A stretch of DNA of 64,000 bases. It comes from Deltaproteobacteria bacterium. GTDB lineage: Bacteria > Desulfobacterota > GWC2-55-46. Below, in pieces: positions 2,259 through 60,690 of the stretch (its first letter is position 1; every line of letters starts with the position of its first letter). Below the pieces are notes generated by a model. It ran no database searches. It was not told the DNA's origin and was given only the letters and a program-made list of their open reading frames with translations. Made by a program: the position numbers and the translations under genes. The stretch covers positions 9,595 through 73,594 of the forward strand of contig JACRNO010000060.1 of assembly GCA_016234855.1 (NCBI GenBank). The letters run 5' to 3'.

Positions 2259-2345
2259 TCGGTTATCGGTTGCTCGTTATCAATTATCCGTTATCAATTG
2301 AGATAAAAAACCTTTACTGATAACCGATTACAGATAACTGGTTAG
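2259..2345. repeat. Stutter hairpin S1 (TTATC/GATAA-unit arms)
   Basis: CGGTTATCGGTTGCTCGTTATCAATTATCCGTTATCAATTGAG...CTGATAACCGATTACAGATAACTGG. The arms are built of repeated GTTATC units and their complement. Lies between rodA and pgpA. Confidence 0.55.
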
Positions 2346-10465: not shown

Positions 10466-10497
10466 TGTGGCGTCAGGAGGAAACTCCTGACGCCACA
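10466..10497. repeat. GTCAGGAG-GAAA-CTCCTGAC hairpin (family copy H1)
   Basis: TGTGGCGTCAGGAG-GAAA-CTCCTGACGCCACA: 14-bp stem, GAAA tetraloop. 3' of ppiD and 5' of proS. Confidence 0.65.
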
Positions 10498-10545
10498 GTA
10501 ATGACGAGCCTTCGTTTCATACCAATATCACAGATGCGAGGTACT

Positions 10546-12283: not shown

Positions 12284-12452
12284 AATTTTGTCCCGCGTTT
12301 ATTGTCATTTCGACCGAAGGGAGAAATCTTAAGATTCCTCACATTTGATAAGTTACAAGACAAGATTCCTCGGTCGCTTGTGCGCTAACGTTATGTCTTT
12401 GGCGCCTTCGCTTCCTCGGAATGACAGCGAAATGTAATTAATCAGAGGTTCC
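12284..12452. mobile_element. MITE-like element copy 2 (one clear TIR, internal GTCATTTCG...CGGAATGACA palindrome)
   Basis: Right TIR TAATTAATCAGAGGTTCC at 12435-12452. Shares the CTTGTGCGCTAACGTTATGTCTTTGGCGCC module with copy 1 and with 13495-13520 and 44391-44430. Confidence 0.5.
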
Positions 12453-12458
12453 CTGAGA

Positions 12459-12617
12459 ATGCAAAAACTCATCGCATGGATAGGCGCTATTATCGTGAGC
12501 TCCATCGGTTGGTGGGTCGGCAGTCAGATAGGCCTGATGACGGCGGTGATACTCTCGGGCATAGGCACTGGCGTGGGGTTCTACTACGGCATGAAGCTCG
12601 CAAAAAGATGGCTATAG
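12459..12617 (+). CDS. Hypothetical small hydrophobic protein (52 aa, Gly-rich, two predicted TM segments)
   Basis: ATG ORF MQKLIAWIGAIIVSSIGWWVGSQIGLMTAVILSGIGTGVGFYYGMKLAKRWL, below the 60-aa track cutoff. GAGG 10 nt upstream is supplied by the terminal repeat of the adjacent MITE-like element. Confidence 0.35.
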   Translation: MQKLIAWIGAIIVSSIGWWVGSQIGLMTAVILSGIGTGVGFYYGMKLAKRWL

Positions 12618-13254: not shown

Positions 13255-13303
13255 CCTCGGCTCCATAGAGGCAAAATGAAATATGACAAGACCCACATGT
13301 ACC

Positions 13304-13572
13304 AAGGAACTTCTGATTAATTATATTCTGCTGTCATTCTGAAGGAGTCCAGCACCACCTTGCGTCGCCAAGTTTAGTTTTGGCACGAACTTTTGTGATG
13401 GAAAGTGGTGCTGGACGACTGAAGAATCTCGTAACTATTTGATTTGCCAATAGACAAGATTCTTCCCCATTCGCTACGCTCAGGGCTAAAGGCGCAAAAA
13501 GCATAACGTTAGCGCACAAGGCTCACGCGCTCAGAATGACAGGCTCAGTAGAATAAATCAGAGGGTCCTTAA
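13304..13572. mobile_element. MITE-like element copy 3, abutting second pilin gene
   Basis: TIRs AAGGAACTTCTGATTAATTAT (13304-13324) and GAATAAATCAGAGGGTCCTTAA (13551-13572). Internal GTCATTCTGAAGGAG...CTCAGAATGACA palindrome and GCGCTAACGTTATGC module. Confidence 0.6.
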
Positions 13573-13820
13573 CAAAGCTTTGCTACATTCATGCCCGAGC
13601 AAGCCAAAAACTACATAATTATTCGGATATTCCATAAAAACATGCCACAGCATGTCGCCTCAATGACACTTTTTGCCTGATTTGACACACCTGGGAGTAA
13701 ATAACAGACCTGCACCTACAGATTAATACCACAAATTGACGCTATTGTCACATATATTTTGCAACAACTAAAAAATACCTTCATTTGCCATTAAGATATG
13801 ACACCCGCCAGGAAGAGAAC

Positions 13821-13857
13821 AAAAAAAACACCAAGGCAGGGTTCCCTGCCTTGGTGT
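13821..13857 (-). terminator. Intrinsic terminator downstream of pilA
   Basis: On the minus strand: CACCAAGGCAGGGAACCCTGCCTTGGTG hairpin followed by TTTTTTTT, 37 nt after the pilA stop. Confidence 0.8.
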
Positions 13858-13893
13858 CACGGGCCAGTCTCTAATCAAACCGGCTTCCGTCTA

Positions 13894-14613: not shown

Positions 14614-14716
14614 AAATAAGGGGAGGAGAAAGACAACTCTCCCCCGAGACGGAGGGCAGGCAACCTCTGCAAGTTTGCTTAAATAAGGGGAGGAGAAAGA
14701 CAACTCTCCCCCTCTT
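14614..14716. repeat. Two 35-bp direct repeats CTTAAATAAGGGGAGGAGAAAGACAACTCTCCCCC (GGGGAG hairpin family)
   Basis: Copies at about 14614-14650 and 14681-14716, each containing CCCCTTAAATAAGGGG and GGAGAAAGACAACTCTCC hairpins. Related GGGGAG/CTCCCC hairpins occur at 37930-38010, 44290-44370 and 59040-59150. Confidence 0.6.
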
Positions 14717-14729
14717 TTTAAAGAGGGGG
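14707..14729 (-). terminator. Putative terminator hairpin after pilR
   Basis: CCCCCTCTTTTTAAAGAGGGGG perfect hairpin 20 nt downstream of the pilR stop. The T-tract is weak. Confidence 0.4.
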
Positions 14730-14748
14730 CCGGGGGGAGTTAATTGTA

Positions 14749-16158
14749 CTACTCCTCCCCCACCCCATATTTGCTCAGCTTATAGCGCATGGCGCGAAAC
14801 GACATGCCAAGAAGCTCGGCAGCCTTCTTCTTTGCCCCGCCAGTAACCTTCAATGCGTCCATAATGGCCGTCCGCTCGAACTCTTCAACGGTCTTTTCAA
14901 GGTCAAACCCTGCCCCCTCTTTCAAGCGCGCAGGCGTAAGCCCCACGCGCTCGGCTGTATCCCCCTGCCCGGCCGCCTTCGGGGCCTGGCGCGCATGCAG
15001 GGGCAGGCTCTCCACGGTAATCAGATCGGAAGGCTCAAGGGCAACGGCGCGCTCCATTATGTTTTCAAGCTCGCGCACGTTGCCCGGATAATCGTATTCC
15101 ATGAGCGCGGCCATCGCCGGCGCGGAGATTACGGTTATGGTCTTGCCCATATCCTTATTATACTTCTCAAGAAAGTGCCTCGCTAAAAGCGGGATATCTT
15201 CTTTACGCTCGCGTAAGGCCGGCATATCGATACGTATCACGTTCAACCTGTAGAAGAGGTCTTCCCTGAACCTGCCCGCCTTGACCTCGGCCTCGAGGTT
15301 CCTATTTGAGGCGGCAATGAGCCTTATATCGACCGGTACATCGACAGTGCCGCCGACCCTGCGAAACCGCCTCTCCTGTATAAAACGCAGGAGCTTGACC
15401 TGAAGGTGCAGAGGCATCTCGGTCAACTCGTCGAGGAAGAGCGTGCCGCCGTCCGCCTCCTCGGCCAGCCCCTGCTTATTGGCCACCGCCCCTGTGAACG
15501 CGCCTTTCTGATGACCGAAGAGCTCGCTCTCAAGGAGGTTCTCGGGTATGGCCCCGCAGTTGACCGCGACGAACGGCGCGTCTTTCCTGTCGCTCTCGTG
15601 CCATATCGCCCGCGCCGCGATCTCCTTGCCCGTGCCGGATTCCCCGGTGATAAAGACGTTGGTCTTGCCCTTTGCTATGCTTACGATAAGCTGATATACC
15701 TCAGTCATCCTCGGGCTTGCCCCCACCATGTTTGCAAACCCGAACCTGGCCTTGCAATCGTCCTTAAGCAGCTTGTTCTCGAGTTCAAGCCGCCTGAGCT
15801 TCAGGGCCTTACGGATATTGAGCTTTATCTCGTCCACGTTGAACGGCTTGGTGAAATAATCAAACGCGCCGGCCTTCATGGCCTCAACCGCGGTATCGAC
15901 CGAGGCATATGCGGTAATCATTATGACGATGGTCTCGGGGGCCAGTTCCTTGACGGCCTTGAGAAACTCCAGGCCCGTCATGCCGGGCATCTTTAGGTCC
16001 GTCAGCACGAGGTCGCATCTGTTCTCCCTGCAGAACTCAAGCGCGGCAGCGGGAGCCGGGAAACTGCGCGCCTCGTAGCCTTCCTTGCGGAGCATTATCT
16101 CCAGAAAATCCCGCATGTCTTTCTCGTCGTCTACTATTATAATCCTCGGCGCGCTCAT
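14749..16158 (-). CDS. pilR: Sigma-54-dependent response regulator PilR (NtrC family)
   Basis: 469 aa with a REC domain (IIIVDDEKDMRD...D...K), an AAA+ sigma-54 activator domain (GESGTGKE, ESELFGH) and a C-terminal HTH. Sits between pilS and pilA as in Geobacter and Pseudomonas. Confidence 0.9.
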   Translation of the reverse strand: MSAPRIIIVDDEKDMRDFLEIMLRKEGYEARSFPAPAAALEFCRENRCDLVLTDLKMPGMTGLEFLKAVKELAPETIVIMITAYASVDTAVEAMKAGAFDYFTKPFNVDEIKLNIRKALKLRRLELENKLLKDDCKARFGFANMVGASPRMTEVYQLIVSIAKGKTNVFITGESGTGKEIAARAIWHESDRKDAPFVAVNCGAIPENLLESELFGHQKGAFTGAVANKQGLAEEADGGTLFLDELTEMPLHLQVKLLRFIQERRFRRVGGTVDVPVDIRLIAASNRNLEAEVKAGRFREDLFYRLNVIRIDMPALRERKEDIPLLARHFLEKYNKDMGKTITVISAPAMAALMEYDYPGNVRELENIMERAVALEPSDLITVESLPLHARQAPKAAGQGDTAERVGLTPARLKEGAGFDLEKTVEEFERTAIMDALKVTGGAKKKAAELLGMSFRAMRYKLSKYGVGEE

Positions 16159-19393: not shown

Positions 19394-20524
19394 CTACCTC
19401 ATTGGCGCGCCAGGCTTCACTATTCCGGCATTGGCAAGCATCTGTTTCAACTCATCCGGCTCGGAACTGCGCCCCATCGCCTCGTCCATGTTGATAAGCC
19501 GCCTGCCGACAAGATTGACGAGGCACTGGTTCATCGTCTGCATGCCGAACTTGGACTGACCGACCTGCATCTGGGAGTAGACCTGATGGACCTTATCCTC
19601 GCGGATGAGGTTCCTTATGGCGGCGTTAGGCACCATTATCTCCAACGCGACGCACCTGCCCTTGCCGTCGGCCCTCGGTATCAGGAGCTGCGAAAGCACG
19701 CCCTCGAGCACGAACGACAACTGCGCGCGAATCTGCGGCTGCTGGCCCGAAGGAAATACGTCGACGACCCTGTTTATCGTCTGAACGCATGAGTTCGTAT
19801 GCAGGGTGGCGAAGCACAGATGGCCCGTCTCGGCGACGGTCAGCGCGGTCTCTATGGTCTCGATATCGCGCAGCTCGCCGAGCAGGACGACGTCCGGGTC
19901 CTGACGCAATATATACTTGAGGGCCTTTTTAAAGGCATGTGTGTCATATCCCACCTCGCGTTGATTGACGAGCGCCTTCTTTGACGGATGGAGATATTCT
20001 ATCGGGTCTTCGACCGTAATGATATGCTCGTGCCTCTCCGAATTAATCTTGTCTATCATGGCGGCAAGCGTTGTCGTCTTGCCGCTGCCGGTGGGGCCGG
20101 TAACAAGGATTAGACCGCGCGGTTTTTTACAAAGTTCTTCGAGTATCGGCGGCAGGCCGAGTTCCGTAAAGGACTTTATCTGGAATGGAATAGTCCTGAA
20201 AACGCCTGCAACGGTGCCCCGTTGCACGAAAAGATTGCCCCTGAAACGGCTGAGGCCTTTGAGGCCGAAAGAGAAGTCAAGCTCATTTTCTTCTTCAAAT
20301 TTGTGTTTCTGCGTGTCCTGGAGAATCGTGTAGCATATCTGCTTCGTCTCAACGCCGCTTAGCACCGCCGCGCCGGGCACGGGCTGAAGCGAGCCGTGCA
20401 CGCGCATCCTCGGCGGGGAGTTTGCGGATAAGTGCAGGTCGGAGCCCCCCTTTTCTATCATAATTTTCAAGAGGTCCTGGAGATTGTACTTTGCTCCCCC
20501 GCCGCCTTCGACCGCCATTATCAA
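19394..20524 (-). CDS. pilT: Twitching motility ATPase PilT
   Basis: 376 aa. Walker A GPTGSGKTTT, Asp box and His box (ATLHTN) of PilT-class secretion ATPases, with no N-terminal GSPII extension. AAGGAG SD. Confidence 0.9.
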   Translation of the reverse strand: MIMAVEGGGGAKYNLQDLLKIMIEKGGSDLHLSANSPPRMRVHGSLQPVPGAAVLSGVETKQICYTILQDTQKHKFEEENELDFSFGLKGLSRFRGNLFVQRGTVAGVFRTIPFQIKSFTELGLPPILEELCKKPRGLILVTGPTGSGKTTTLAAMIDKINSERHEHIITVEDPIEYLHPSKKALVNQREVGYDTHAFKKALKYILRQDPDVVLLGELRDIETIETALTVAETGHLCFATLHTNSCVQTINRVVDVFPSGQQPQIRAQLSFVLEGVLSQLLIPRADGKGRCVALEIMVPNAAIRNLIREDKVHQVYSQMQVGQSKFGMQTMNQCLVNLVGRRLINMDEAMGRSSEPDELKQMLANAGIVKPGAPMR

Positions 20525-20587: not shown

Positions 20588-20654
20588 GGACAGTGGTTAG
20601 TGATTAGTATCCACTATCCATTGTCCACTATCCACTAACCACTGTCCACTGTCC
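20588..20654. repeat. Stutter hairpin S2 (CCACTATCC-unit arms)
   Basis: GGACAGTGGTTAGTG...ATCCACTATCCATTGTCCACTATCCACTAACCACTGTCCACTGTCC, with a 15-bp stem GGACAGTGGTTAGTG/CACTAACCACTGTCC. Abuts the pilB stop codon, between pilB and pilT. Confidence 0.6.
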
Positions 20655-22358
20655 CTAATCGGCCATCGTCACCCTCATGATCTCTTCGATGGTGGAGACA
20701 CCCTCAAGCACCTTGGTGATACCGCTCATACGAAGCGTCTTCATCCCGTCTTTGATGGCAATCCTTTTAATCTCCGAGGTAGGGGCGCCGTTCAACACCG
20801 CCTCCTTCAGGGCATCCGTAAAAGGCATGACCTCGTAAAGCGCTATCCTGCCCTTGTACCCGCTTCCGTTGCACGTCGCGCACCCCGCGCCCTTGTAGAC
20901 CTCAACCCCGGCGTCTATAATGTCCTGCGCGACGCCGAAGGTCTTTAACAAGGCCTCGGACGGCTGTGGGGCCTTGACCTTGCAGTCCTTGCATACCTTA
21001 CGGGCGAGCCTCTGGGCCAGGATGAGGTTACATGCGGACGAGACGAGGAACGGTTCTATACCCATGTTAAGCAGCCTGTTAACGGTGCCCGGGGCGTCGT
21101 TCGTATGGAGAGTGGAAAGCACCAAATGACCCGTAAGCGCGGCCTTGACCGCGATCTCGGCCGTCTCATAGTCGCGTATCTCTCCGACCATGATAACGTC
21201 CGGGTCCTGACGCAGGAAGCTCCTCAGCGCCGCCGCGAAGTTCAGGCCGATATCGTCGTGCATCTGACACTGGTTTATGCCGCCGAGATTGAACTCGACT
21301 GGGTCTTCCGCGGTCGAGATATTCTCGCTCACCTTGTTAAGGTCTGAGAGGGCTGAATAAAGCGTCGTCGTCTTGCCGGAGCCGGTCGGGCCGGTGACGA
21401 GGCAGATGCCCCACGGCTTGTGGATGGCGTGCATGAAGTCGTCAAGGGCCTTCTGCTCGAAACCGAGCTTGGTCATGTCGAGCTGCAGGTTGCCCTTGTC
21501 GAGGAGACGCAAGACCGTCTTCTCGCCGAAGAGCGTCGGCAGCACGGAGACGCGGTAGTCCATCTCCTTGTTCTTGGCGAGCTTGAGCTTGATCCTGCCG
21601 TCCTGCGGCAGCCTGCGCTCGGCGATATCGAGATTGGCGATGATCTTTATCCTGGACGTGATGGCGTTTCTGAGCTTCATGGGAGGCTTCATCACCTCCT
21701 GAAGCACGCCGTCAATCCTGTAACGCACGCGGAAGGACTTTTCATAGGGCTCGATATGGATATCGGAGGCGTTCTTCTTGATGGCGTCGGTGAGTATCAT
21801 GTTGACGAGCTTGACGACAGGGGCGTCTTCAACGGCCTTCTTGAGGTCGTTGACGTCGACGTCGTCTTCCTCCCTGACGACCTCCATGTCGGTGTCTTCA
21901 AAATCGCCGAGCATGCCTTCGAGGTTGGCCTCCGGCGATTCATACTGCTTTTCAATGGCGGCCTTTATGGCGGCCTCGGAGGCGATAAGCGGCTCGACGT
22001 TGTAACCGGTAAGGAATTTTATGTCGTCGATTGCGAAGATGTTGGACGGGTCGGCCATGGCCATGACCAACGTGGAGCCGGTCCTGTTAACCGGTATTAT
22101 CTGGTACTTCTGACAGACGTCCTCAGGTATGAGCTTTACGATTTCAGGGTCGATTTCAGCGGCGGCAAGGTCGATGGTGGGTATCCCGTACTGCCTGCTC
22201 AAAAAGGCGGTCAGGTCTTTTTCGGTAATGAATCCGAGCTTGGTGAGATTAAGACCAAGCCGGCCACCGCTCATCTTCTGCTCATCAATAGCCTTTTTCA
22301 ACTGCTCGGCCGTAATAAGCCTCTCTCTAAGTAGTAGTTCGCCGATTCTATCCGCCAT
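20655..22358 (-). CDS. pilB: Type IV pilus assembly ATPase PilB
   Basis: 567 aa. GSPII N-domain, Walker A GPTGSGKTTT, tetracysteine motif (CKDC...CATCNGSG). Confidence 0.9.
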   Translation of the reverse strand: MADRIGELLLRERLITAEQLKKAIDEQKMSGGRLGLNLTKLGFITEKDLTAFLSRQYGIPTIDLAAAEIDPEIVKLIPEDVCQKYQIIPVNRTGSTLVMAMADPSNIFAIDDIKFLTGYNVEPLIASEAAIKAAIEKQYESPEANLEGMLGDFEDTDMEVVREEDDVDVNDLKKAVEDAPVVKLVNMILTDAIKKNASDIHIEPYEKSFRVRYRIDGVLQEVMKPPMKLRNAITSRIKIIANLDIAERRLPQDGRIKLKLAKNKEMDYRVSVLPTLFGEKTVLRLLDKGNLQLDMTKLGFEQKALDDFMHAIHKPWGICLVTGPTGSGKTTTLYSALSDLNKVSENISTAEDPVEFNLGGINQCQMHDDIGLNFAAALRSFLRQDPDVIMVGEIRDYETAEIAVKAALTGHLVLSTLHTNDAPGTVNRLLNMGIEPFLVSSACNLILAQRLARKVCKDCKVKAPQPSEALLKTFGVAQDIIDAGVEVYKGAGCATCNGSGYKGRIALYEVMPFTDALKEAVLNGAPTSEIKRIAIKDGMKTLRMSGITKVLEGVSTIEEIMRVTMAD

Positions 22359-22445: not shown

Positions 22446-22596
22446 TTAAGGAAGCTCTGATTAATTCTGTTATTTGTCATTCCGAGGAGCGCTGTTGCGA
22501 CGAGGAATCTTGTAACTTGCTGAATTGCCTGCGAAACAAGATTTCTCGCTACGCTCGAAATGACAATTTGGTTGAATTAATCAGAGTTTCCTTAAT
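22446..22596. mobile_element. MITE-like element copy 4 (upstream of pilB)
   Basis: TIRs TTAAGGAAGCTCTGATTAATTC (22446-22467) and GAATTAATCAGAGTTTCCTTAA (22575-22596). Internal GTCATTCCGAGGAGCG...CGCTCGAAATGACA palindrome. Confidence 0.65.
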
Positions 22597-22659
22597 ATCG
22601 CCTGCGCGGGGCCCGGAGGCCTTATCGCGCGGCGGCCGTGACGGCTTGAACCAGGCCGG

Positions 22660-28515: not shown

Positions 28516-28545
28516 ACCCGCCGCCTGCTGCGCGCTTTCTCTGTG

Positions 28546-28692
28546 CCGTCAGGAGTTTCCTCCTGACGGCGGTACCCGGCGGATGGCAGGAGGAAACTCC
28601 CGCCATCACACTAATTTTCAGTCCCGTCAGGAGTTTCCTCCTGACGGCGGTGCCCGGCATATGGCAGGAGGAAACTCCCGCCATCACATTAA
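28546..28692. repeat. Two 69-bp direct repeats (78-bp period), each a double hairpin of the GTCAGGAG family (H2)
   Basis: CCGTCAGGAGTTTCCTCCTGACGGCGGT(A/G)CCCGGC(GG/AT)ATGGCAGGAGGAAACTCCCGCCATCACA(C/T)TAA at 28546-28614 and 28624-28692. About 94% identical. Confidence 0.7.
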
Positions 28693-39282: not shown

Positions 39283-39370
39283 CTTGTATGTGGGATGTAG
39301 TATGTGGGATGTGGCAAAGTCTTCTATGCTTTCCGCCTTCCACTTCCCACATCCTACATCCCACCTCCCT
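39283..39370. repeat. Stutter hairpin S3 (TGTGGGATGT-unit arms)
   Basis: TGTGGGATGTAGTATGTGGGATGTGG...CCACTTCCCACATCCTACATCCCACC, about 26-bp imperfect arms. Intercistronic between the CsgG-like gene and the SLH-like lipoprotein gene. Confidence 0.6.
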
Positions 39371-41310: not shown

Positions 41311-41459
41311 TTAAGGAACCTCTGATTAATTCATTTCTTTTCTGTCATTCTGAGGAGCGAAGCGACGAAGAATCTCGTAACTTGTTGAATTTCTTAGAAG
41401 CGAGATTCTTCGCTTCGCTCAGAATGACACCATTGTGGAATTAATCAGAGGTTCCTTAA
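41311..41459. mobile_element. MITE-like element copy 6 (compact 149-bp archetype)
   Basis: Perfect TIRs TTAAGGAACCTCTGATTAATTC (41311-41332) and GAATTAATCAGAGGTTCCTTAA (41438-41459). Internal palindrome GTCATTCTGAGGAGCGAAGCGACGAAGAATCTCGTAACTTG...CGAGATTCTTCGCTTCGCTCAGAATGACA. Confidence 0.7.
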
Positions 41460-41532
41460 TAATATTAAAGCGTTACATCATGCGTCTTCTGATTGTTTCG
41501 CAGCAAGGCTCGGCGCGCCGCTGCCCCAGGCC

Positions 41533-44071: not shown

Positions 44072-44123
44072 AAGGTGGGTGTCATAGATACCATTTAAGA
44101 AATGCCGTAATTGCAGCGTATCC

Positions 44124-44185
44124 GTGGCGTCAGGAGTTTTCTCCTGACGCCTTGCCGTGCGCCGTCGGGAGGAAACTCCCGACGG
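44124..44185. repeat. GTCAGGAG-family hairpins (H3, two adjacent)
   Basis: GTGGCGTCAGGAGTTTTCTCCTGACGCC and CCGTCGGGAGGAAACTCCCGACGG, at the 5' end of the amidohydrolase gene. Confidence 0.6.
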
Positions 44186-44194
44186 AACAAAAAT

Positions 44195-44440
44195 ACCGCA
44201 TATGCACAAATGTAGCGCAGACCTTTAGGTCTGCCGTTTCGGCAAAACTACATCAGGGCTAAAGCCCTAAGCTACAAACCCATCATTGCTGCACTTGTAG
44301 GAATCCAGCGCCCCCTCATCCCGGCCTTCTCCCCAAGGGGAGAAGGAGCAGAACCTCCTCTCCCCTTTGGGGAGGCGCCAAAGGCGCTAAAGACATAACG
44401 TTAGCGCACACGACACAACGTTAGCGCACGAGAGGATTGA
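44195..44440. repeat. Mosaic of shared intergenic modules
   Basis: Contains GTAGCGCAGACCTTTAGGTCTGCC, CAGGGCTAAAGCCCTAAGCTAC, CTCCCCAAGGGGAGAAGGAG/CTCCCCTTTGGGGAGG hairpins and two copies of the ACAACGTTAGCGCAC module. Lies upstream of pycB. Confidence 0.5.
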
Positions 44441-46391: not shown

Positions 46392-46457
46392 AAGTTATCG
46401 GTTATCAGTTATCAGTAAATGTGTTTCCGTTTTACCGATAACCGATAACGGATAACC
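46392..46457. repeat. Stutter hairpin S4 (GTTATC-unit arms)
   Basis: AAGTTATCGGTTATCAGTTATCAG...CCGATAACCGATAACGGATAACC. Intercistronic between pycA and pycB. Confidence 0.6.
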
Positions 46458-46460
46458 AAT

Positions 46461-47879
46461 TCAGAACCCGTGGTGGGCGGCTATCGCGGCAGCCAGGGCC
46501 GCGACGACGTCCGTAGGCTCGCCGTATTCGTCATAGTCCATAAGTTCCGGCTTTCTGTCGATGTATCCCGTGTCAAAATTGCCCGCCTTGAAGTCCGGGT
46601 CTTTCATTATGTTCTTCAGGTAGAGTATCGTGGACTTCACCCCGCGTATGACGAACTCGTCGAGACACCTGTGCGTCCTCGCGACCACCTCTTCCCAGCT
46701 TGAGCCTCTTACGATGAGCTTGACCACGAGAGAATCGTAATGCGACGGCACGACGAAGTCCTTGTATATCGCCCCGTCTATGCGTACGCCAATGCCGCCT
46801 GGCGAATAATACGCCGTGACCTTGCCGAAGGACGGGAAAAAATTATTCTTCGGGTCTTCCGCGCAGATGCGGCATTCGATGGCGTAGCCGTTTATTCTGA
46901 CGTCCTCCTGCTTGAAGCCAAGGGGCTTGCCCGCGGCTATCTCTATCTGCTTTTTAACGAGGTCTATGCCGGTCGTCTCCTCGGTTATCCCGTGCTCGAC
47001 CTGTATCCTCGTGTTCATCTCAAGGAAGTAATAGTTCATCCCGGCGTCCACGAGAAACTCGACCGTGCCGGCGTTCGTGTAGTTTGCGGCGGCCGCCGCC
47101 TTTACCGCGTCCGCGCCCATGCGGCTGCGCAGGTCCTCATTGAGTATGAGCGAAGGCGTGATCTCGATGAGCTTCTGGTGGCGCCTCTGTATCGAGCAGT
47201 CGCGCTCGCCCAGATGGACTATATTGCCGTAATTGTCGGCGAGTATCTGGAACTCGACATGGTGCGGCCTTTCGATGTACTTCTCCAGAAAGACCGCCGA
47301 GGCGCCGAAGGCCGCGGCAGACTCGGTTTGCGCGCTGTTGAAGGATTTTATAAGCTCCGCCTCAGAGCGCGCCACGCGAAGCCCCCTGCCCCCGCCCCCG
47401 CCCGAGGCCTTTATCATCACGGGATATCCCATCTCCCTCGCAAAGGCCACGGCCTCGTCAACGTCCTTTACGGAACCCTCGGTGCCGGGCAGTATCGGCA
47501 CGCCGGCCTGCTTCATCATGCGGCGTGCGTTGACCTTATCGCCCATGTCCGAGATGGTCTTGGACGTGGGCCCGATAAAGGTTATGCCCTTTTTATCGCA
47601 CAACAGCGGAAAGCGCGGGTTCTCGGAGAGAAACCCGTAGCCCGGATGGATTGCCTCCACGCCTATCTTCTTCGCAAGGTCGACTATGCGATGGATATTG
47701 AGATAGCCCTGGATAGGCCCGGGCCCCACCATATAAGACTCGTCGGCCTTCTTCACATACAGCGAAGTCGCATCTTCCTCGGAATATATGGCGACGGTCG
47801 GGATATCAAGCTCCTTGCATGCCCTGATTACCCGCGTGGCTATCTCGCCCCTGTTTGCTATCAAGACCTTTTTAAACAT
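46461..47879 (-). CDS. pycA: Pyruvate carboxylase subunit A (biotin carboxylase)
   Basis: [26 protein letters not shown]... shows the ATP-grasp biotin carboxylase fold. Start taken at the ATG at 47879. Confidence 0.85.
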   Translation of the reverse strand: MFKKVLIANRGEIATRVIRACKELDIPTVAIYSEEDATSLYVKKADESYMVGPGPIQGYLNIHRIVDLAKKIGVEAIHPGYGFLSENPRFPLLCDKKGITFIGPTSKTISDMGDKVNARRMMKQAGVPILPGTEGSVKDVDEAVAFAREMGYPVMIKASGGGGGRGLRVARSEAELIKSFNSAQTESAAAFGASAVFLEKYIERPHHVEFQILADNYGNIVHLGERDCSIQRRHQKLIEITPSLILNEDLRSRMGADAVKAAAAANYTNAGTVEFLVDAGMNYYFLEMNTRIQVEHGITEETTGIDLVKKQIEIAAGKPLGFKQEDVRINGYAIECRICAEDPKNNFFPSFGKVTAYYSPGGIGVRIDGAIYKDFVVPSHYDSLVVKLIVRGSSWEEVVARTHRCLDEFVIRGVKSTILYLKNIMKDPDFKAGNFDTGYIDRKPELMDYDEYGEPTDVVAALAAAIAAHHGF

Positions 47880-48106: not shown

Positions 48107-49639
48107 TCAACCGGACTCAGTTCCGGCCTTCAACCATTTCCTTACAAAGGCCGCCGCCTCCTTCTTCGTCCGCACCGCACCGGACTCGACCCCCTCTGCA
48201 ATCTTCGCCAATATCTTGCCGACAGCCGGGCCTTCGGCTACCCCAAAGGTCTTCATCACCTCCGCCCCGTTCATGACCGGCCCTGGAGGCTTTTTCAGAT
48301 AAGTCTCATAATAGAACCTGAACATCTCGCGGACGACGGCGCTAAGCTCCGGGTCCTGCCCGCCGCGCGTTGCATGGGCGTCCGCAAGGGCAAGGCAGAG
48401 GAGGTCAAGACCGAGGTCGGCCCCGACCGAGCGCAACAGGTGCGCCTTTGCGCGGGCCGAAGGACACACAAGGCCGGCGAGACCGAATACCCTGTGATGG
48501 CAGCGCACGAGGGTCGATATCGCCGCGCAGGCCCTGCTGCTGAATTTGAGACGACGGAGCGCCGCGGCGGTTGCTGCTGCCCCCTCGTGGTCGTGTCCGT
48601 AAAACCTGAGCCTGCCAGCTTCAATCGTCATGGCCGCTGGTTTGCCTATGTCGTGGAGAAGGACGGCGAGCATGAACCAGACAGAGCGCTTGACGCCGCC
48701 AACAGACCTTGCAAAGTGCCTCTTGAGGCGCGCATGGTACGGCCCGAAGCTCTCTTCGTCCATATTATCAAGGAGGAGTTCGGCCGCGTCCAGCGCCTTC
48801 AACGTGTGGCCGAGGATATCGTATCCTGCCAGGTCCTCCCAATCCTTCATCTGCGGGATTATTGCGCCTATCAGCCCCAGGTCATATAACGCCATGACCG
48901 AGGCCGACGCGCCTTTGCACTCTAATATGGCGACCAGTTCGGCGCGTATGCGTTCGACCGAGACATTCGCAAGGAGCCCGGCATCCGCCTTTATGAGCCG
49001 GACGGTATCATCCGTTATCGTCAACCCGTACTGAACGGCCAGACGCACGGCCCGGAGCATGCGCAAGGGGTCGTCTTTAAAGACCCGTTCGGACACGGCG
49101 GCCACGAGCCCGGCCTTCGCGTCCTCCATGCCGTTGCACGGGTCAATCACGCAAACCTGGCCACCGGCGGCGATCTCGCGCAGATCAACGGCCATCGCGT
49201 CGATTGTGAAGTCGCGGCCCCTCAGGTCGGCGACGATATCCGCTTTCACGCCAAACGCTTTAACCGGCGAAAGGTCGATAGTGACCTGACGGCCGCCCTT
49301 CCTGAAGACCACGCGATACGAGGGCGCTTCTTTATCGAGTATAAAGGCGGAACCCTTGAGCCGCCGGGCAATCGCTGCGGCAACGCGAGCGACGCCGCCC
49401 AATATCACAAAATCATAATCCGGCTGAGCGCGGCAACCGAGCATCAGGTTACGCACCACCCCGCCGACGAGATAAACCTTGAGACCGGCCCGGCCGCATA
49501 CGCTTGCTACCGCCTTCACTACCGAGTCATTGGCAATAAAGGCCGCTCCCGGGACCGGCTTTAAAAAAAAAGAGGCCGGTTTCGACCGGCCCCTGGCACG
49601 CAAGGATTTTTTAGTTTTGCTCTCATCCACGTCAAGCAC
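48107..49639 (-). CDS. cca: CCA tRNA nucleotidyltransferase / poly(A) polymerase family with HD domain
   Basis: Nucleotidyltransferase head motif LKVYLVGGVVRNLMLG...DYDF, followed by an HD phosphohydrolase region (HDIGK). Exact start uncertain. Confidence 0.75.
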   Translation of the reverse strand: MLDVDESKTKKSLRARGRSKPASFFLKPVPGAAFIANDSVVKAVASVCGRAGLKVYLVGGVVRNLMLGCRAQPDYDFVILGGVARVAAAIARRLKGSAFILDKEAPSYRVVFRKGGRQVTIDLSPVKAFGVKADIVADLRGRDFTIDAMAVDLREIAAGGQVCVIDPCNGMEDAKAGLVAAVSERVFKDDPLRMLRAVRLAVQYGLTITDDTVRLIKADAGLLANVSVERIRAELVAILECKGASASVMALYDLGLIGAIIPQMKDWEDLAGYDILGHTLKALDAAELLLDNMDEESFGPYHARLKRHFARSVGGVKRSVWFMLAVLLHDIGKPAAMTIEAGRLRFYGHDHEGAAATAAALRRLKFSSRACAAISTLVRCHHRVFGLAGLVCPSARAKAHLLRSVGADLGLDLLCLALADAHATRGGQDPELSAVVREMFRFYYETYLKKPPGPVMNGAEVMKTFGVAEGPAVGKILAKIAEGVESGAVRTKKEAAAFVRKWLKAGTESG

Positions 49640-49655
49640 CCATAAAAAACAATAC

Positions 49656-51944
49656 TCAGATCAGTTCCACCTCAAGCATACCGTCAGCCATGGGTATGGT
49701 ATGAACGGTCTCGGATATCATCCTGACCTTCTTGGCGGTCTCGCGGTAATCGGGGTCTACTGCGCTGACTGCCGCATAGAGTTTACCCGCCTCTTCAAAC
49801 TTTTCATCGGCCTCGTATGCAAGCGCAAGCTCGTACATCATACCCTTGCGCTCTTCGTCGCTCCTGCCGGTCACGCGCAAGCCCTTGGTGTAATACCCTA
49901 TCGCGTCTTCGTATTTACCCTCGGACATGGAGCACAGGGCCAGACGCGTATAACAATCGAACTCCAGGAGCGGGTCTTTGAGCGCAATCTTGAACTCCTT
50001 GACGGCCTCGCCGAGAAGCTCCATCTCCATATACGCTATGCCAAGATTGAAATGCGTCTCCGAGTCCTCCTTGTTGAGCTGATTGCCTATGCCGGTCTTG
50101 AACTCGTCGAATGCCTCCTTGGAACTACCCGCCCCCCATGAGCCCGCAAGGTCCGAGAGGGCGTCTTCCATGCCAAGCTCCTTGGAGAGATCGACGAACT
50201 CGTCGCCGGAGCCGGTCTGCCCGGCCTCGGCAACGCTTGCCGCTTCCGGCACGGCCCTGGTCTCGACGACCTCATCCGGCAGTTCCTCGACCATCTCAAG
50301 AGGTTCATGATGCTCAGTCATCTCGCTGATGGACTTCGTAAGGTCGTCATGCGTAAAGCCGGCCTGGGCAGGCGCTGCGGCTTCGTCCGTCTCAACATGT
50401 TCGGTGATAATCTCCTCTTCAATCTCCAGGGAAGTCTCTTCAACCGGGGCCGCTTCAATTGCCTCTTCAGGCGCGGCCTCTGGAACGTCCGCTATCTCGG
50501 GCTCCGTCTCGAAGACAATCTCTTCGGCAACCTCTTCTTCGTGCGCCGCTTCCGGCGCCACCTCGAAGACAATCTCTTCGGCAACCTCTTCTTCGTGCGC
50601 CGCTTCCGGCGCCACCTCGAAGACAATCTCTTCGGCGGCCTCTTCTTCAGGCGCGGAAGGCGTCACGGCCTCGGGCGCGCCCTTGGCTGATGCGCCAGCC
50701 GATACGTCCGCGGCGACGGCGCTGAGTATCGCGTCGACCTCGCGCTGGGCCGCGGCGCCAGGCATCTCAAACTCGACCTCCGTGGCCTTTACCCCGGAGA
50801 TATCCAATTCAAGGGCCCGCCCGCCGCCTTCTTCAACTGTCCCAGGCCCCTCTTCAACCTCAACCTCAAATAGAGGCTCGTGCGGCGCCTCCTCCTTACT
50901 CTTATCACCGCCAAGGTCAACGCTAAGCCCTGTCTCCGGAAATGAAATCATGGGCTCTTCTTCCGGCCTAAGGAGCGCGGGCGGCTCCGGAGTCTTTGAC
51001 GGCTCCCCGACCTCCGGGAAACTAATAAGCGGCATGCCTTGTTCCGGCACGGGCGGTTCGCTCAACTCGGGGAAACTGATAAGCGGCGCGGCATCCAACG
51101 GCTGTCTGGCCGGACCTTTCGCAACCGCTCCGGCCTTGTCCTTTGCCGGCTCCGGCCCCTTGCCAAGGTACTTAAGACAGTCCTCGTCCTTCGGAGAGAC
51201 CTCAAGAATGGCGTCGCAAACAGCCCTGGCGTTCTCGGCGTCGCGCCTCTCCACATAGACATTGAAAGCAGCCTTGGTGAATTTTAAAAACTTCTCGTCG
51301 TCGTGGCGCTTTTTATAAAGCTCGGACAGGCCCTTCAGTATGCGGATATCCTTGGGGTAGGTCTTGTAGAGGGTCGTAAACGTCTTCTCGGCCTTGTCGA
51401 GCTTGTCCTGCGCCATGTACTTCTTGAAGATGACGGCGTACTCGCCAAGGGCGTCGTTCTCAAAATTCAGCTTCTGATATAGCTCGGCGAGCTTCAGGCG
51501 GATGCCGATATTATCAGGGTCGATATCGAGCATCTCCTTGAGGAGCTGCATGACCTCGCCGGTCTTGCCCTTCTTCTCGAAACTGGAGACGAGCAGCGAG
51601 TACTCGCCTATTGCGTCGGATATCAGGCGCTGTTTGGCGTAGAGCTCCGCGAGCTTGTAGTGTATCTCGTAGTTGGTCTCCTCAAGCTTGAGCACCTGCT
51701 TGTAGACGGCGATGGCCTTGAGGTAGAAACCGCGCTGACTGTTGGCCTTGGCGACTTCCTTGTACTCCTCGATGGCCTCGGTCTTCTTGCCCATCTTGAC
51801 GTAGAGGTCGCCGACGCGGAGCCGGATGGAGATATCCTTAGGGTCGGAGTCGAACGCGGCCTTGTACTCAAGGATGGCCTTGTCCAGTGCGCCCTTTGCA
51901 AGGTGCGCCTGGGCGCGCTCCATTAATTTATCTTTAAGGGCCAT
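49656..51944 (-). CDS. TPR-repeat protein with central acidic Pro/Glu-rich region containing 19-aa tandem repeats
   Basis: N- and C-terminal TPR blocks. The centre has VAEEIVFEVAPEAAHEEE repeated about 2.5 times and a long low-complexity acidic tract. No TM or signal peptide. ATG at 51944 preferred over the GTG at 51974. Confidence 0.7.
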   Translation of the reverse strand: MALKDKLMERAQAHLAKGALDKAILEYKAAFDSDPKDISIRLRVGDLYVKMGKKTEAIEEYKEVAKANSQRGFYLKAIAVYKQVLKLEETNYEIHYKLAELYAKQRLISDAIGEYSLLVSSFEKKGKTGEVMQLLKEMLDIDPDNIGIRLKLAELYQKLNFENDALGEYAVIFKKYMAQDKLDKAEKTFTTLYKTYPKDIRILKGLSELYKKRHDDEKFLKFTKAAFNVYVERRDAENARAVCDAILEVSPKDEDCLKYLGKGPEPAKDKAGAVAKGPARQPLDAAPLISFPELSEPPVPEQGMPLISFPEVGEPSKTPEPPALLRPEEEPMISFPETGLSVDLGGDKSKEEAPHEPLFEVEVEEGPGTVEEGGGRALELDISGVKATEVEFEMPGAAAQREVDAILSAVAADVSAGASAKGAPEAVTPSAPEEEAAEEIVFEVAPEAAHEEEVAEEIVFEVAPEAAHEEEVAEEIVFETEPEIADVPEAAPEEAIEAAPVEETSLEIEEEIITEHVETDEAAAPAQAGFTHDDLTKSISEMTEHHEPLEMVEELPDEVVETRAVPEAASVAEAGQTGSGDEFVDLSKELGMEDALSDLAGSWGAGSSKEAFDEFKTGIGNQLNKEDSETHFNLGIAYMEMELLGEAVKEFKIALKDPLLEFDCYTRLALCSMSEGKYEDAIGYYTKGLRVTGRSDEERKGMMYELALAYEADEKFEEAGKLYAAVSAVDPDYRETAKKVRMISETVHTIPMADGMLEVELI
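50508..50655. repeat. 57-bp tandem repeat (about 2.6 units) inside the TPR/acidic protein gene
   Basis: TCGAAGACAATCTCTTCGGCAACCTCTTCTTCGTGCGCCGCTTCCGGCGCCACC repeated at 50508, 50565 and (partial) 50622. Encodes the 19-aa VAEEIVFEVAPEAAHEEE repeats. Confidence 0.8.
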
Positions 51945-52029
51945 AACCTCATCCGTAGTTGATACAAAATGCACCGTGAACCGGCGGGCCAGCGCAACCG
52001 CGCTGCTCCGCTTATCGCATAATTATCAT

Positions 52030-52180
52030 ATTAAGGAACCTCTGATTAATTCGCAAACGTATGTCATTCTGAGCGGAGCGAAGAATCTCGTATATAGGCA
52101 AATCAACAAGTTACGAGATTCTTCAGTCGCTGCGCTCCTTCAGAATGACAGTAGGACAGAATAAATCAGAGCTTCCTTAA
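52030..52180. mobile_element. MITE-like element copy 7
   Basis: TIRs TTAAGGAACCTCTGATTAATTC (52030-52051) and GAATAAATCAGAGCTTCCTTAA (52159-52180). Same internal GTCATTCTGAGCGGAGCGAAGAATCTCGTA...CAAGTTACGAGATTCTTC...CAGAATGACA palindrome. Confidence 0.7.
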
Positions 52181-52211
52181 CAGTCGCATGACCGGTTCGG
52201 CTGACAATCTC

Positions 52212-53027: not shown

Positions 53028-53079
53028 CCGTCAAAGGCTGAAGATAAAATAGACGGACTTTCTTCATTGCATAACTGAT

Positions 53080-53103
53080 GGGTCAGGAGGAAACTCCTGA
53101 CCC
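53080..53103. repeat. GTCAGGAG-GAAA-CTCCTGAC hairpin (H4)
   Basis: GGGTCAGGAG-GAAA-CTCCTGACCC, between accC and the lipoate ligase-like gene. Confidence 0.6.
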
Positions 53104-53161
53104 ACACACATTGAAAATGACGGGGCCCGGCCAAAACAAGCAATGGTTATATTTATACAGA

Positions 53162-54496
53162 TTACGTGAATCTCGAAAGAAAATCAATGTCCGTATTGCC
53201 CGCTATGAAGTCATGGTCCTTCATTATCTTCAGATGCAGCGGGATATTGGTCTTTATGCCGGCGATATGAAACTCCTCGAGCGCCCTCGTCATCCTCGCT
53301 ATGGCATCCTCGCGCGTCTCGGCATGGACTATTAGCTTGGCAAGGAGGTTGTCGTAGTAAGGCGGTACGGTATAGCCGCAATAGATGGCGCTGTCAAGGC
53401 GCACGCCCGGCCCGCCCGGCGTTATGAGCTCTGTAATCTTCCCCGGGGACGGGACAAAGGTCTTGGGGTCTTCCGCGTTTATCCTGCACTCGATGGAGTG
53501 CCCCTTGAACCTGACGTCCTTCTGGCGAAGTTCAAGTTTATGGCCCGCGGCCACGCGAATCTGCTCCTTCAGGAGGTCGGTGCCGGTCACAAGTTCCGTG
53601 ACCGGGTGCTCGACCTGTATCCTCGTATTCATCTCCATGAAGTAGAAGGACTTGTTCTTGTCGAGGAGAAACTCGACCGTGCCGGCGTTCGTATACCCGA
53701 TGCCTTTGCAGAGCTTTACCGCGGCCTCGCCCATCTTCTGACGCAGCTTCGCGTCCACGGCCGTGGACGGCGACTCTTCGAGTATCTTCTGATGCCGCCT
53801 CTGTATGGAACATTCGCGTTCGCCCAGGTGTATGACGTTGCCGTGCTCGTCGGCCATGACCTGAATTTCGATATGCCTGGGGAGCTCGCAGAACCTCTCG
53901 ATGAATATCTCGCCGTCCCCGAAGGCCGACAGGGCCTCCATGCGAGCCATGTTGAAGGCGCTGGAGAGCGCGGCCTGCGTATGGACGAGCTTCATGCCGC
54001 GGCCTCCGCCGCCGGCGGCGGCCTTGATAAGAAGCGGAAAGCCTATCTTCTTCGAGACCTCATGGGCCTCTTTCTCGTCGGCCACGCCCTTGTTGCTCCA
54101 CGGCAACACCGGTATGCCAAGCTCCTCGGCCGTCTTCTTGGCCTGGACCTTGTTGCCCATGAGGCGCATAAGGGCCGAGGTCGGGCCGATAAACTTTATC
54201 CCGCACTTCTCGCAGGCCTCGGCAAAACCGGCGTTCTCGGCCAGAAAGCCGTAACCCGGGTGCACGGCCTCGGCATCGGCCACCTCCATCGAGCTTATGA
54301 TGGAGGTGATGTTCAGGTAACTGTCCGCGCTCCTGGCCGGCCCGATACAGATTGCCCCGTCCGCAAACCGCGTATGCAGGGCCTCTCTGTCGGCCTGAGA
54401 ATAGACGGCAAGCGTGCGTATGCCCATCTCCTTGCAGGCCCTGATTATCCTTACGGCTATCTCGCCTCTGTTGGCGATAAGAATCTTGTTGAACAT
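53162..54496 (-). CDS. accC: Acetyl-CoA carboxylase biotin carboxylase subunit
   Basis: [26 protein letters not shown]... Paired with an upstream accB. Start at the ATG at 54496. Confidence 0.9.
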
Positions 54497-54704
54497 CCGC
54501 ACCCCGTAATGCGCATCGGTCATGGCCGAGACCTTAATACGACGACATGGAAACTCTTCCAAACACGGCGCTCCGAGCGCCGGACGACAGCCGCCTTCAC
54601 AAACCCTGCCGCCTTAAAACATACCGATATCGGACACCGGCCATCCACGCAATAAAAAAACCCTTAATCCCGCTCTTTAAAGAGAGACCAAGGGGGCGCG
54701 GCCG

Positions 54705-58299: not shown

Positions 58300-58470
58300 A
58301 AATGAAACTCTTATTAATTCCCAGGTCTGTCATTGCAAACTCAGAGCGCCTGTCTGGACTATACGGAGCGCATCTTTGCGCAGCTCAGGGCTTTAGCCCT
58401 GAATAGACGGCGCTGGACGCGGTATCAGGCCTGAAGGCCTGAGCTACACATATACGTCATTCCCGCTTAA
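58300..58470. repeat. Degenerate MITE-related mosaic (CTTATTAATTCCC end; GCGCAGCTCAGGGCTTTAGCCCTGA and CAGGCCTGAAGGCCTGAGCTAC modules)
   Basis: Shares hairpin modules with 31100-31200, 40385-40460 and 44210-44270. Confidence 0.4.
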
Positions 58471-59002: not shown

Positions 59003-59165
59003 TCGGAAAAGACCCATTTGAAAATCCCCACGACCCACGCCGCTTGGCGTGGGGACCCCGCCCCTTTTACAGGGGGGAGAAGGTTCAAGCCTCTTCCCTT
59101 TTAATCCCCCCTTTAGAAAGGGGGAGGTTCAGAGCCTTTCCTTTAACCCTCATCTTTTATGAAGT

Positions 59166-60395: not shown

Positions 60396-60690
60396 TTAAG
60401 GAAGCTCTGATTTATTCTGTCTTATTGTCATTCTGAAGGAGCGCAGCGACTGAAGAATCTCGTAACTTGTTGATTTGCCTATATACGAGATTCTTCGCGG
60501 AGTTTACCCTGAGCGAAAAACTGAGATTCTTCGCTTCGCTCAGAATGACATAGCGAAGGGCTCATAATGACATACGTTTGCAATTAATCAGAGCTTCCTT
60601 AACTCGAATTCGTCATTCCCGCGAACGCGGGAATCCAGAAATCACCAAGAGACTGGATTCCCGACTAAAGCATCGGGAATGACATTTATA
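60396..60690. mobile_element. MITE-like element copy 8 (composite: TIR-bounded unit 60396-60602 plus appended GTCATTCCCGCG...CGGGAATGACA module)
   Basis: TIRs TTAAGGAAGCTCTGATTTATTC and CAATTAATCAGAGCTTCCTTAA. The internal palindrome is duplicated/expanded. 60603-60690 carries the GGGAATCCAG...CTGGATTCCC module also seen at 30995-31090. Confidence 0.65.

Follow-up and report, generated by a model that had tools for sequence, protein, structure and literature searches.

Inverted heptanucleotide arrays between co-directional genes in an uncultured deltaproteobacterial lineage

Four heptamer hairpins and the genes around them

The stretch of DNA considered here, hereafter the window, comprises 64,000 nucleotides of contig JACRNO010000060.1 (positions 9,595 to 73,594 of the forward strand; assembly GCA_016234855.1, Deltaproteobacteria bacterium), and carries four hairpin-forming elements, S1 to S4, each made of a tandem array of 7-nt units followed by the complementary array in inverted order. 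An earlier note on this DNA had proposed four elements with a common architecture and differing sequences, placed at junctions within operons, and the window sequence agrees with it in these respects: all four are present where it had located them, S2, S3 and S4 have no sequence in common, and every flanking gene lies on the minus strand, each pair being co-directional. These pairs are rodA/pgpA (S1), pilB/pilT (S2), a CsgG-like lipoprotein gene and an SLH-domain lipoprotein gene (S3), and pycA/pycB (S4), the last encoding pyruvate carboxylase as two subunits, the biotin carboxylase and the carboxyltransferase; the identities of RodA, PgpA, PilB, PilT, PycA and PycB were confirmed with NCBIfam, and those of the two lipoproteins with Pfam. 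The elements and their parts are the following, with the units written as they read on the sense strand.

2259–2345, minus strand: S1, decayed heptamer hairpin between rodA and pgpA; Tandem Repeats Finder (TRF) period 7
2311–2338, minus strand: 5′ arm of S1, GTTATCT GTAATCG GTTATCA GTAAAGG
2297–2310, minus strand: loop of S1
2259–2296, minus strand: 3′ arm of S1, TGATAAC GGATAAT TGATAAC GAGCAAC CGATAAC CGA
20588–20654, minus strand: S2, asymmetric heptamer hairpin between pilB and pilT; inverted repeats I10 and I13
20606–20654, minus strand: G-rich array of S2, seven units, GGACAGT GGACAGT GGTTAGT GGATAGT GGACAAT GGATAGT GGATACT
20588–20605, minus strand: C-rich array of S2, AATCACT AACCACT GTCC, also written ACTAATC ACTAACC ACTGTCC
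39286–39369, minus strand: S3, heptamer hairpin in the spacer between the CsgG-like and SLH lipoprotein genes; inverted repeats I2 and I7
39340–39369, minus strand: 5′ arm of S3, GGGAGGT GGGATGT AGGATGT GGGAAGT GG
39315–39339, minus strand: loop of S3
39286–39314, minus strand: 3′ arm of S3, CC ACATCCC ACATACT ACATCCC ACATAC
46394–46456, minus strand: S4, heptamer hairpin between pycA and pycB; inverted repeat I24
46431–46456, minus strand: 5′ arm of S4, GTTATCC GTTATCG GTTATCG GTAAA
46420–46430, minus strand: loop of S4
46394–46419, minus strand: 3′ arm of S4, TTTAC TGATAAC TGATAAC CGATAAC, in the TAACTGA/TAACCGA register

The unit is a heptamer throughout. The earlier note had given it as 6–12 nt long; TRF returns a period of 7 in all four elements (2258–2295, 20608–20654, 39288–39314, 39340–39369, 46393–46416 and 46434–46457), and, because it does so at each of them, the units of 8–10 nt written there as GTTATCGG, CCACTATCC and TGTGGGATGT were misphased. 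At S1–S4 there are at least three head-to-tail copies, both by TRF and by our own scan, as in the short tandemly repeated repetitive (STRR) sequences, and each array is closely followed by its reverse complement to give a stem-loop, which is visible in the inverted repeats and in the folds alike. The sense-strand units are GTTATCN and NGATAAC in S4 and, in degenerate form, in S1; GGNNAGT (seven copies) and ACTNNCC (three copies) in S2; and GGGATGT and ACATCCC in S3. S1 is a decayed member of the class, which falls below the threshold of the scan and in which the 7-nt phase is still legible. In S2 and S3 the variant units are mirrored between the arms: on reading S2 one finds GGACAGT and then GGTTAGT in each arm, and in S3 the second unit variant is A-initial in both (AGGATGT in the 5′ arm, AGTATGT in the 3′ arm once reverse-complemented). 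Since the variants are mirrored in order, what links the two arms is inverted duplication, rather than slippage in each arm separately. A “TTTAC” leader that seemed conserved ahead of the 3′ arms was set aside, being no more than the stem's innermost, AT-rich stretch and not holding generally for the viral contigs described below.

S2 begins immediately past the TAG stop of pilB (20655–20657; pilT ATG at 20518), S3 about 15 nt past the stop of the CsgG-like gene (39385; GTG start of the SLH gene at 39247), and S4 4 nt past the TGA stop of pycA (46461–46463; pycB ATG at 46357); in other words, three of the four start 0–20 nt beyond an upstream stop codon. S1, at a distance of 234 nt from the stop of rodA (2580), lies in a spacer of 321 nt that holds two further hairpins, and its 3′ arm abuts the TTG start of pgpA at 2258. 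None of the stems takes in the ribosome-binding site of pilT, of pycB or of the SLH gene.

The sense (minus) strand RNA is predicted to fold with energies of −24.2 (S1), −39.3 (S2), −42.8 (S3) and −32.4 (S4) kcal/mol, with z-scores against shuffled controls of −2.9 to −7.5 overall (S2 −6.4, S3 −6.6, S4 −7.5). A scan of the window for tandem arrays of periods 5–12, with a search for a nearby reverse-complement partner, returned six period-7 arrays with an inverted partner, two for each of S2, S3 and S4 (one per arm); no array of any other period had a partner, and in 200 dinucleotide-matched (first-order Markov) simulated windows partnered period-7 arrays had a mean of 0 and a maximum of 0. In the window together with its relatives (322 kb of the clade) an inverted partner exists for 24 of the 53 period-7 arrays, compared with at most one partnered array for each of the periods 5, 6, 8, 9 and 10. 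The structures are genuine, far above chance, and members of a recognisable class. No Rfam family reaches its gathering threshold anywhere in the window.

Two observations concern the neighbourhood of these junctions. The further hairpins of the rodA–pgpA spacer (2350–2579), upstream of S1, are CCCATTGC...GCAATGGG and CCCCCTTT..AAAGGGGG, the second being of a GGGGG/CCCCC type that recurs at 14622–14760, 44329–44374 and 59055–59128. Two segments of pycA (46847–47030 and 47777–47879) are 71–72% identical to 53461–53644 and 54394–54496, within the open reading frame (ORF) 53162–54562, which indicates that the latter is probably a second biotin carboxylase paralogue, some 6.6 kb from pycA.

Polarity, turnover and growth

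The heptamer hairpins obey a rule of polarity, in that the 5′ arm has more G than C and the 3′ arm more C than G. In this clade the 5′ arm is G-richer in 13 hairpins and C-richer in none, with one tie, and over all the sets the figures are 35, 8 and 6 (p = 4e-5), to be compared with 15, 10 and 7 for ordinary control hairpins of the same clade loci. Units of CAGT type stand in the 5′ arm 19 times versus 2, and those of ACTG type in the 3′ arm 19 times versus 2. This placing of the G-richer array first, known as “convergent”, is likewise that of the Xanthomonas pairs and of the Geobacter class 3 pairs discussed below. It is possible that the polarity avoids an unpaired, C-rich and G-poor 5′ arm able to load Rho, and it is also possible that it reflects the synthesis of G-rich units at the 3′ ends on either side of a break. 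The test of polarity has replaced an argument which we withdraw, namely that the constant orientation of the elements to their genes (4 of 4, with two unit families) was a sign of strand-specific function; this result is trivial, because reverse-complementing a hairpin of the form U...rc(U) gives back the same hairpin as far as the unit family is concerned.

With regard to distribution, the closest relatives (their loci are numbered with the prefix L) have a PilB that is 90% identical (L001) and a PycA that is 91% identical. Heptamer hairpins are present in the window, at a density of four loci in 64 kb, and in L004, L008, L009, L012 and L013, the last two having one in nearly every spacer of the pil operon. 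There is none in L001, the closest PilB relative, nor in the PycA relatives, which amount to about 250 kb (L081–L100; 63–91% identity, most of them 80–91%), and of the 68 period-7 arrays in Myxococcota loci totalling 990 kb only 1 has an inverted partner. Such a dispersed, mostly intergenic and genome-restricted distribution is that of the STRR type, and it upholds the earlier idea that the elements are specific to certain genomes, with more examples now from relatives and from phage contigs that are unrelated.

At the level of single junctions, the orthologous pilB/pilT spacer has a hairpin in each of the window, L008, L012 and L013, with units that bear no relation to one another, and in L004 it holds a remnant of the L013 unit, CCGTGAN. 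The pycA/pycB spacer is in most relatives a bare ribosome-binding spacer, and because it measures only about 15–25 nt, S4 is to be seen as an insertion or expansion. At the CsgG-like/SLH junction, synteny is not conserved among the loci examined. The elements are genome-specific, turn over fast, and are not conserved at orthologous junctions. Certain unit families recur: GTTATCN in S1, in S4 and twice in L008, and AATTACG in L013 and L009.

The length of these palindromes can be followed in a marine lineage which emerged from the PycA search, where a heptamer palindrome occupies the pycA/pycB junction, about 50–140 nt past the stop of the PycA homolog. The spacer is of 43 nt in L118, of 50 nt (+7) in L115, and of 86 nt in L111, L112, L114 and L116. 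What differs is the tip, the outer stem being conserved. This series supports growth in heptamer steps at the tip of the hairpin. At the same junction L117 has different units (CCTNNAG), which shows that the architecture persists and the sequence does not. The origin by slippage that the earlier note had suggested fits these data, given the strict 7-nt period and a difference of +7 nt between strains at one junction of another lineage.

Two side observations belong to the relatives. A short hairpin motif, CAGGGCTTTAGCCCTG (44254–44269 and 58386–58401), has three matches in the window for 0.03 expected, and is also found just after pilB, in the pilB/pilT spacers of L004 and L008. In L013, a relative of low GC content, heptamer arrays and hairpins lie within the 5′ ends of three consecutive genes (67–202, 716–897 and 1300–1396), one of which encodes a thioredoxin-like CPWC protein; there (TTACTGC)n codes for the hydrophobic core of the signal peptides (LLLTAYCLL...) and (GAAGTCA)n for a charged N-region (RSQKSEIRSQ...).

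Published counterparts and wider occurrence

Heptamer repeats of the STRR type have served as fingerprinting markers of cyanobacteria since 1990. The hairpins had been thought undescribed as a class, which turns out to be mistaken: because counterparts have been published from cyanobacteria (STRR; PMC2670836), Geobacter metallireducens (PMC2700814) and Xanthomonas (PMC4692102), the class must be considered as known already, though never explained. More generally, among the long simple-sequence repeats of prokaryotes heptanucleotides are given as the commonest, with a sporadic occurrence and a proposed origin by slippage (Mrazek 2007, as cited in PMC4679880).

In filamentous cyanobacteria, 7-bp STRR hairpins occur between co-transcribed genes, for example hupS and hupL, and elsewhere, with transcript stability or translational coupling as their suggested role (PMC2670836). 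The window elements resemble them in having 7-bp tandem units, intergenic or intercistronic and capable of forming hairpins, whose sequence differs between close relatives and whose structure is kept. They differ from them in their host, an uncultured groundwater lineage of “Deltaproteobacteria” or Thermodesulfobacteriota-like affinity, in their units, none of which is identical to those of STRR1–3 (CCCCAGT, TTGGTCA and CAACAGT), and in that nearly each element has a unit of its own, where cyanobacteria have a few high-copy families. The published units nearest to S2 are Nostoc CCACTGA, at two mismatches from the main unit, and STRR3 CAACAGT, at two mismatches from GGACAGT; there are also exact matches to published units, one unit in an arm of S2 being the H. 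pylori GTGATTA, and S4 having TAACTGA.

The paired sites of classes 1–3 in G. metallireducens, named “global regulator binding sites”, consist of 3–5 tandem repeats of 7–9 nt on opposite strands (Aklujkar 2009, PMC2700814, Figures S3–S5); the spacer of proB and proA is one example of their location, and G. sulfurreducens lacks them (PMC2700814). They share with the window elements the inverted pairing of short tandem arrays, the intergenic position, including within operons, the restriction to certain genomes, and the polarity, the TCAG-type G-richer arm coming first on either strand; the unit CTTCTGA, included in class 3, is also found in L013. Unlike the present elements, whose loops measure 11–25 nt, the arrays of G. 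metallireducens are 70–115 nt or more apart, have one consensus unit per class, and have been read, as a proposal, as DNA-binding sites (PMC2700814). In Xanthomonas, heptamers of GGGAATC form 70–75 convergent (inverted) pairs per genome, with potential stem-loops, and Nostoc has GGGGA(T/C)T repeats (Rehm 2015, PMC4692102). These too are G-rich heptamer arrays with the G-rich array first on each strand, a type to which the S3 unit GGGATGT belongs, and their length varies by species with the arrangement kept, as in the elements described here. Xanthomonas, on the other hand, has a single unit family per genome, and the emphasis there has been on G-quadruplexes, in contrast to S1–S4, of which S3 alone has GGG tracts, just three in number.

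Direct repeats of TAACTGA are known from Beggiatoaceae, Cyanobacteria and Bacteroidetes (MacGregor 2015, PMC4679880), with one inverted case among 170 sets and a proposed role in translation initiation (PMC4679880). In S4, S1 and L008 the 3′ arm, taken in the forward sense, is (TAACTGA/TAACCGA)n and stands just before the start of the next gene, the S1 array reaching the start codon itself, and for both kinds of repeat the phylogenetic distribution is patchy; the TAACTGA repeats, unlike the window elements, are direct arrays of a single heptamer. Over the clade as a whole, 5 of 42 leading units are identical to published heptamers, for about 0.7 expected, and include TAACTGA, CTTCTGA and CTCCTGA; as the published heptamers were brought together ad hoc, this is a lead only. 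A further comparison is with the repetitive extragenic palindromic (REP) sequences and bacterial interspersed mosaic elements (BIMEs). In enterobacteria these are intercistronic palindromes that shield the upstream mRNA from 3′ exonucleases. The elements of the window are similarly extragenic palindromes within operons, without a U-tract, and with a likely effect on mRNA decay; unlike them, REPs have a conserved consensus, are mobilised by RAYT transposases, and have no tandem units.

Beyond cellular genomes, (GTTATCN)3 is present in at least 120 IMG/VR viral contigs, most of which, among the matches listed, have direct arrays without a partner. In four viral contigs (L278, L279, L198 and L221) heptamer hairpins occupy nearly all the spacers, with several unit types per contig, including xATCAGT, TTCCCAG, GGGTGAA, CCGTTRT and AAAGGTA. 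L278 and L279 overlap in the same phage region, of 62% GC, and L279 encodes a head-tail connector protein; for its host the phage collection gives no identification.

Origin and possible functions

The explanation that we favour, with a probability of roughly one half, is that S1–S4 are palindromes of heptanucleotide repeats, of the STRR or long-simple-sequence-repeat kind, grown by slippage and extended at the tip, and that in mRNA they form REP-like stem-loops. A tandem 7-nt array, G-richer on the 5′ side, and the inverted complementary array after it would have originated and changed in length by slipped-strand mispairing in 7-nt steps, with strand-switch copying at the tip of the hairpin, and would have persisted mainly where it was harmless, that is, in spacers at gene boundaries. 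That they are transcribed within polycistronic mRNAs would follow because all four stand between co-directional genes, three of them 0–20 nt past the stop, and in such mRNAs they would constitute stem-loops of 20–30 bp without a U-tract. By analogy, their likeliest effect would be that of REPs, as a barrier to 3′-to-5′ exonucleases and possibly as a site for RNase III, and the upstream and downstream cistrons would in this way be uncoupled in their stability. The part of the proposal that concerns origin has comparative support, and the effect on RNA is what we infer; a role in RNA stability may be considered possible for S1–S4, and transcription termination or a sequence-specific operator function is not likely.

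Several facts weigh against this explanation. Firstly, pilB/pilT and pycA/pycB are occupied in separate lineages, which could denote a selected function and not neutrality. Secondly, slippage alone explains neither the strong G-first polarity nor the identity of heptamers (TAACTGA, CTTCTGA) across distant phyla. Thirdly, the 7-nt steps in length are known from the marine lineage and not from S1–S4 themselves, and the role in RNA is likewise something we infer. Finally, the sense fold is more stable than the antisense in six of six elements of the window and L008, but in just 11 of 16 co-directional elements overall, and the mismatches are G–U in 10 cases versus A–C in 7. With these last two figures selection at the RNA level is not demonstrated, the RNA-level bias is suggestive at most, and the asymmetry of G–U versus A–C was dropped as a proof of it.

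An alternative that we consider unlikely, and still deserving of weight, is that the hairpins are selected intercistronic regulators acting in the RNA, which tune the expression of operons through differential mRNA stability, RNase III processing, stalling of ribosomes close to the stop, or translational coupling, the structure being kept while the sequence drifts. The position of three of the four elements within 20 nt of the upstream stop would suit such regulators, as would the occupation of pilB/pilT in at least four genomes with differing units, that of pycA/pycB in the window and in the unrelated marine lineage with two unit types, and the greater stability of the sense fold in those six elements; the same roles have been proposed for cyanobacteria (PMC2670836). 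However, the closest relatives manage without elements at those junctions, where their spacers are tight, an unequal expression of pycA and pycB would be of no obvious benefit because both encode subunits of one enzyme, the L013 arrays extend into the 5′ ends of coding sequences, and the G–U asymmetry is not significant overall.

It is improbable that the elements act at the level of DNA, where they would be operator-like pairs of sites bound by a nucleoid protein or a global regulator, of IHF/HU-like, Fur-like or DnaA-like kind, a role proposed earlier for the paired sites of G. metallireducens. Their architecture and polarity do match the paired sites of classes 1–3, and by reading alone the GATAAC of S1 and S4 resembles the GATAAT hexamers of Fur, and the S2 unit TATCCAC the core of the DnaA box; the earlier note had itself evoked DnaA-box-like or GATA-type motifs. 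These resemblances do not withstand scrutiny, given that the DnaA box TTATCCACA, allowing up to one mismatch, is absent from S1–S4 and shows no enrichment in the window as a whole (12 found, 7.2 expected), and that the period is of 7 nt, and not the 6 nt of Fur arrays; on these grounds we reject DnaA boxes in S2 as well as Fur or GATA motifs in S1 and S4. Moreover, no single protein could read all the elements, because the units differ completely within one genome, and close relatives lack the elements.

It is more doubtful still that the elements are small mobile DNA, of the kind of MITEs (miniature transposable elements with inverted repeats), REPs or REPINs, copied by a transposase that recognises hairpins. 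The recurrence of the unit families GTTATCN and AATTACG across loci and genomes, the insertion-like character of S4 and the abundance in the window of other dispersed repeats, including a MITE-like family, could be taken in this sense. The loops and flanks are, however, unrelated between copies, with neither target-site duplications nor separate terminal inverted repeats to be seen, which led us to reject a MITE; there is no consensus palindrome of the REP or REPIN kind, as S2, S3 and S4 share no sequence; the arms vary in length by single units; the marine lineage shows growth at the tip of an existing element; and no transposase was found linked to the elements, no systematic search for one having been made. 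An integron attC site was also discarded, its polarity RYYYAAC...GTTRRRY being opposite to GTTATC...GATAAC, and the neighbours being core genes.

The other repeats of the window are of separate types. A MITE-like family, unlike S1–S4, comprises about seven copies in 64 kb of some 150–300 bp (310–607, 12415–12460, 13302–13574, 22446–22597, 41311–41461, 52031–52182 and 60396–60604). The terminal inverted repeats of this family measure 22 bp, TTAAGGAAsCTCTGATTAATTC ... GAATTAATCAGAGsTTCCTTAA, and enclose a palindrome, GAAGAATCTCGTA...TACGAGATTCTTC. A family of palindromes, GGCGTCAGGAGGAAACTCCTGACGCC, is located at 10466–10502, 28537–28692, 44123–44194 and 53076–53112, with similar palindromes in L005; at 28537–28692 it takes the form of a 78-bp tandem duplication with two GGCGTCAGGAGGAAACTCCTGACGCC palindromes per unit. 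A dispersed repeat, GTGCGCTAACGTTATG..TTTAGCGC, has six copies (206–241, 513–548, 12373–12408, 13492–13520 and 44384–44432); a short way downstream of S4 there is also a fragment related to it, ATGTGCTAACACAT. Finally, a 54-bp tandem repeat (50477–50673; 2.6 copies, 97% matches) is in frame within the minus-strand ORF 49656–51974.

There is also a slight chance, in our estimation, that the inverted arrays are scars of an active “repeat-writing” and not of passive slippage. G-rich 7-nt units would be added by extension of 3′ ends to both ends of a break, for instance at a hairpin tip cut by a nuclease, and the rejoining of these ends would give a head-to-head structure similar to a telomere fusion; the activity would exist in some genomes and phages only, shared or transferred across phyla. 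If true, this would account for the strict period, the inverted symmetry, the growth at the tip and the G-first polarity on both strands, as well as for the all-or-none distribution among genomes, the density in a phage structural module, and the recurrence of TAACTGA and CTTCTGA in Beggiatoaceae, cyanobacteria, Geobacter and the lineage of the window.

Least probable of all is that the elements are intrinsic terminators without a U-tract, or strong pause sites, which end or attenuate transcription between genes, termination being one of two possibilities, beside RNA stability, that the earlier note had named: strong stems directly after stop codons, the two additional hairpins in the 321-nt spacer that holds S1, and a T6 run after S3, on the antisense strand only, would speak for it, but a direct reading of the sequence shows none of the four to be followed by a U-tract on the sense strand, the stems and loops are unlike those of the canonical terminators of this genome, which have T8–T9 tails elsewhere in the window (13827–13858 and 49571–49594), termination at pycA/pycB, where S4 splits the genes of the pyruvate carboxylase subunits, or at pilB/pilT would silence the downstream genes, and for these the best promoter match, of 9/12, is not a good one and falls within repeats. 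S1–S4 were also not picked up by a terminator scan of the window, which is weak evidence because the scan accepts only loops of 3–8 nt.

The architecture of inverted heptamer arrays now extends to an uncultured groundwater deltaproteobacterial lineage and to phage contigs. What is added here is the gain and loss of these elements between close relatives at identical gene junctions, their growth at the tip in another lineage, and a G-first polarity unlike that of the ordinary hairpins of the same DNA, regularities that make of a vague “repeat” something testable. For annotation, it means that such hairpins are not to be labelled as terminators, DnaA boxes or Fur boxes.

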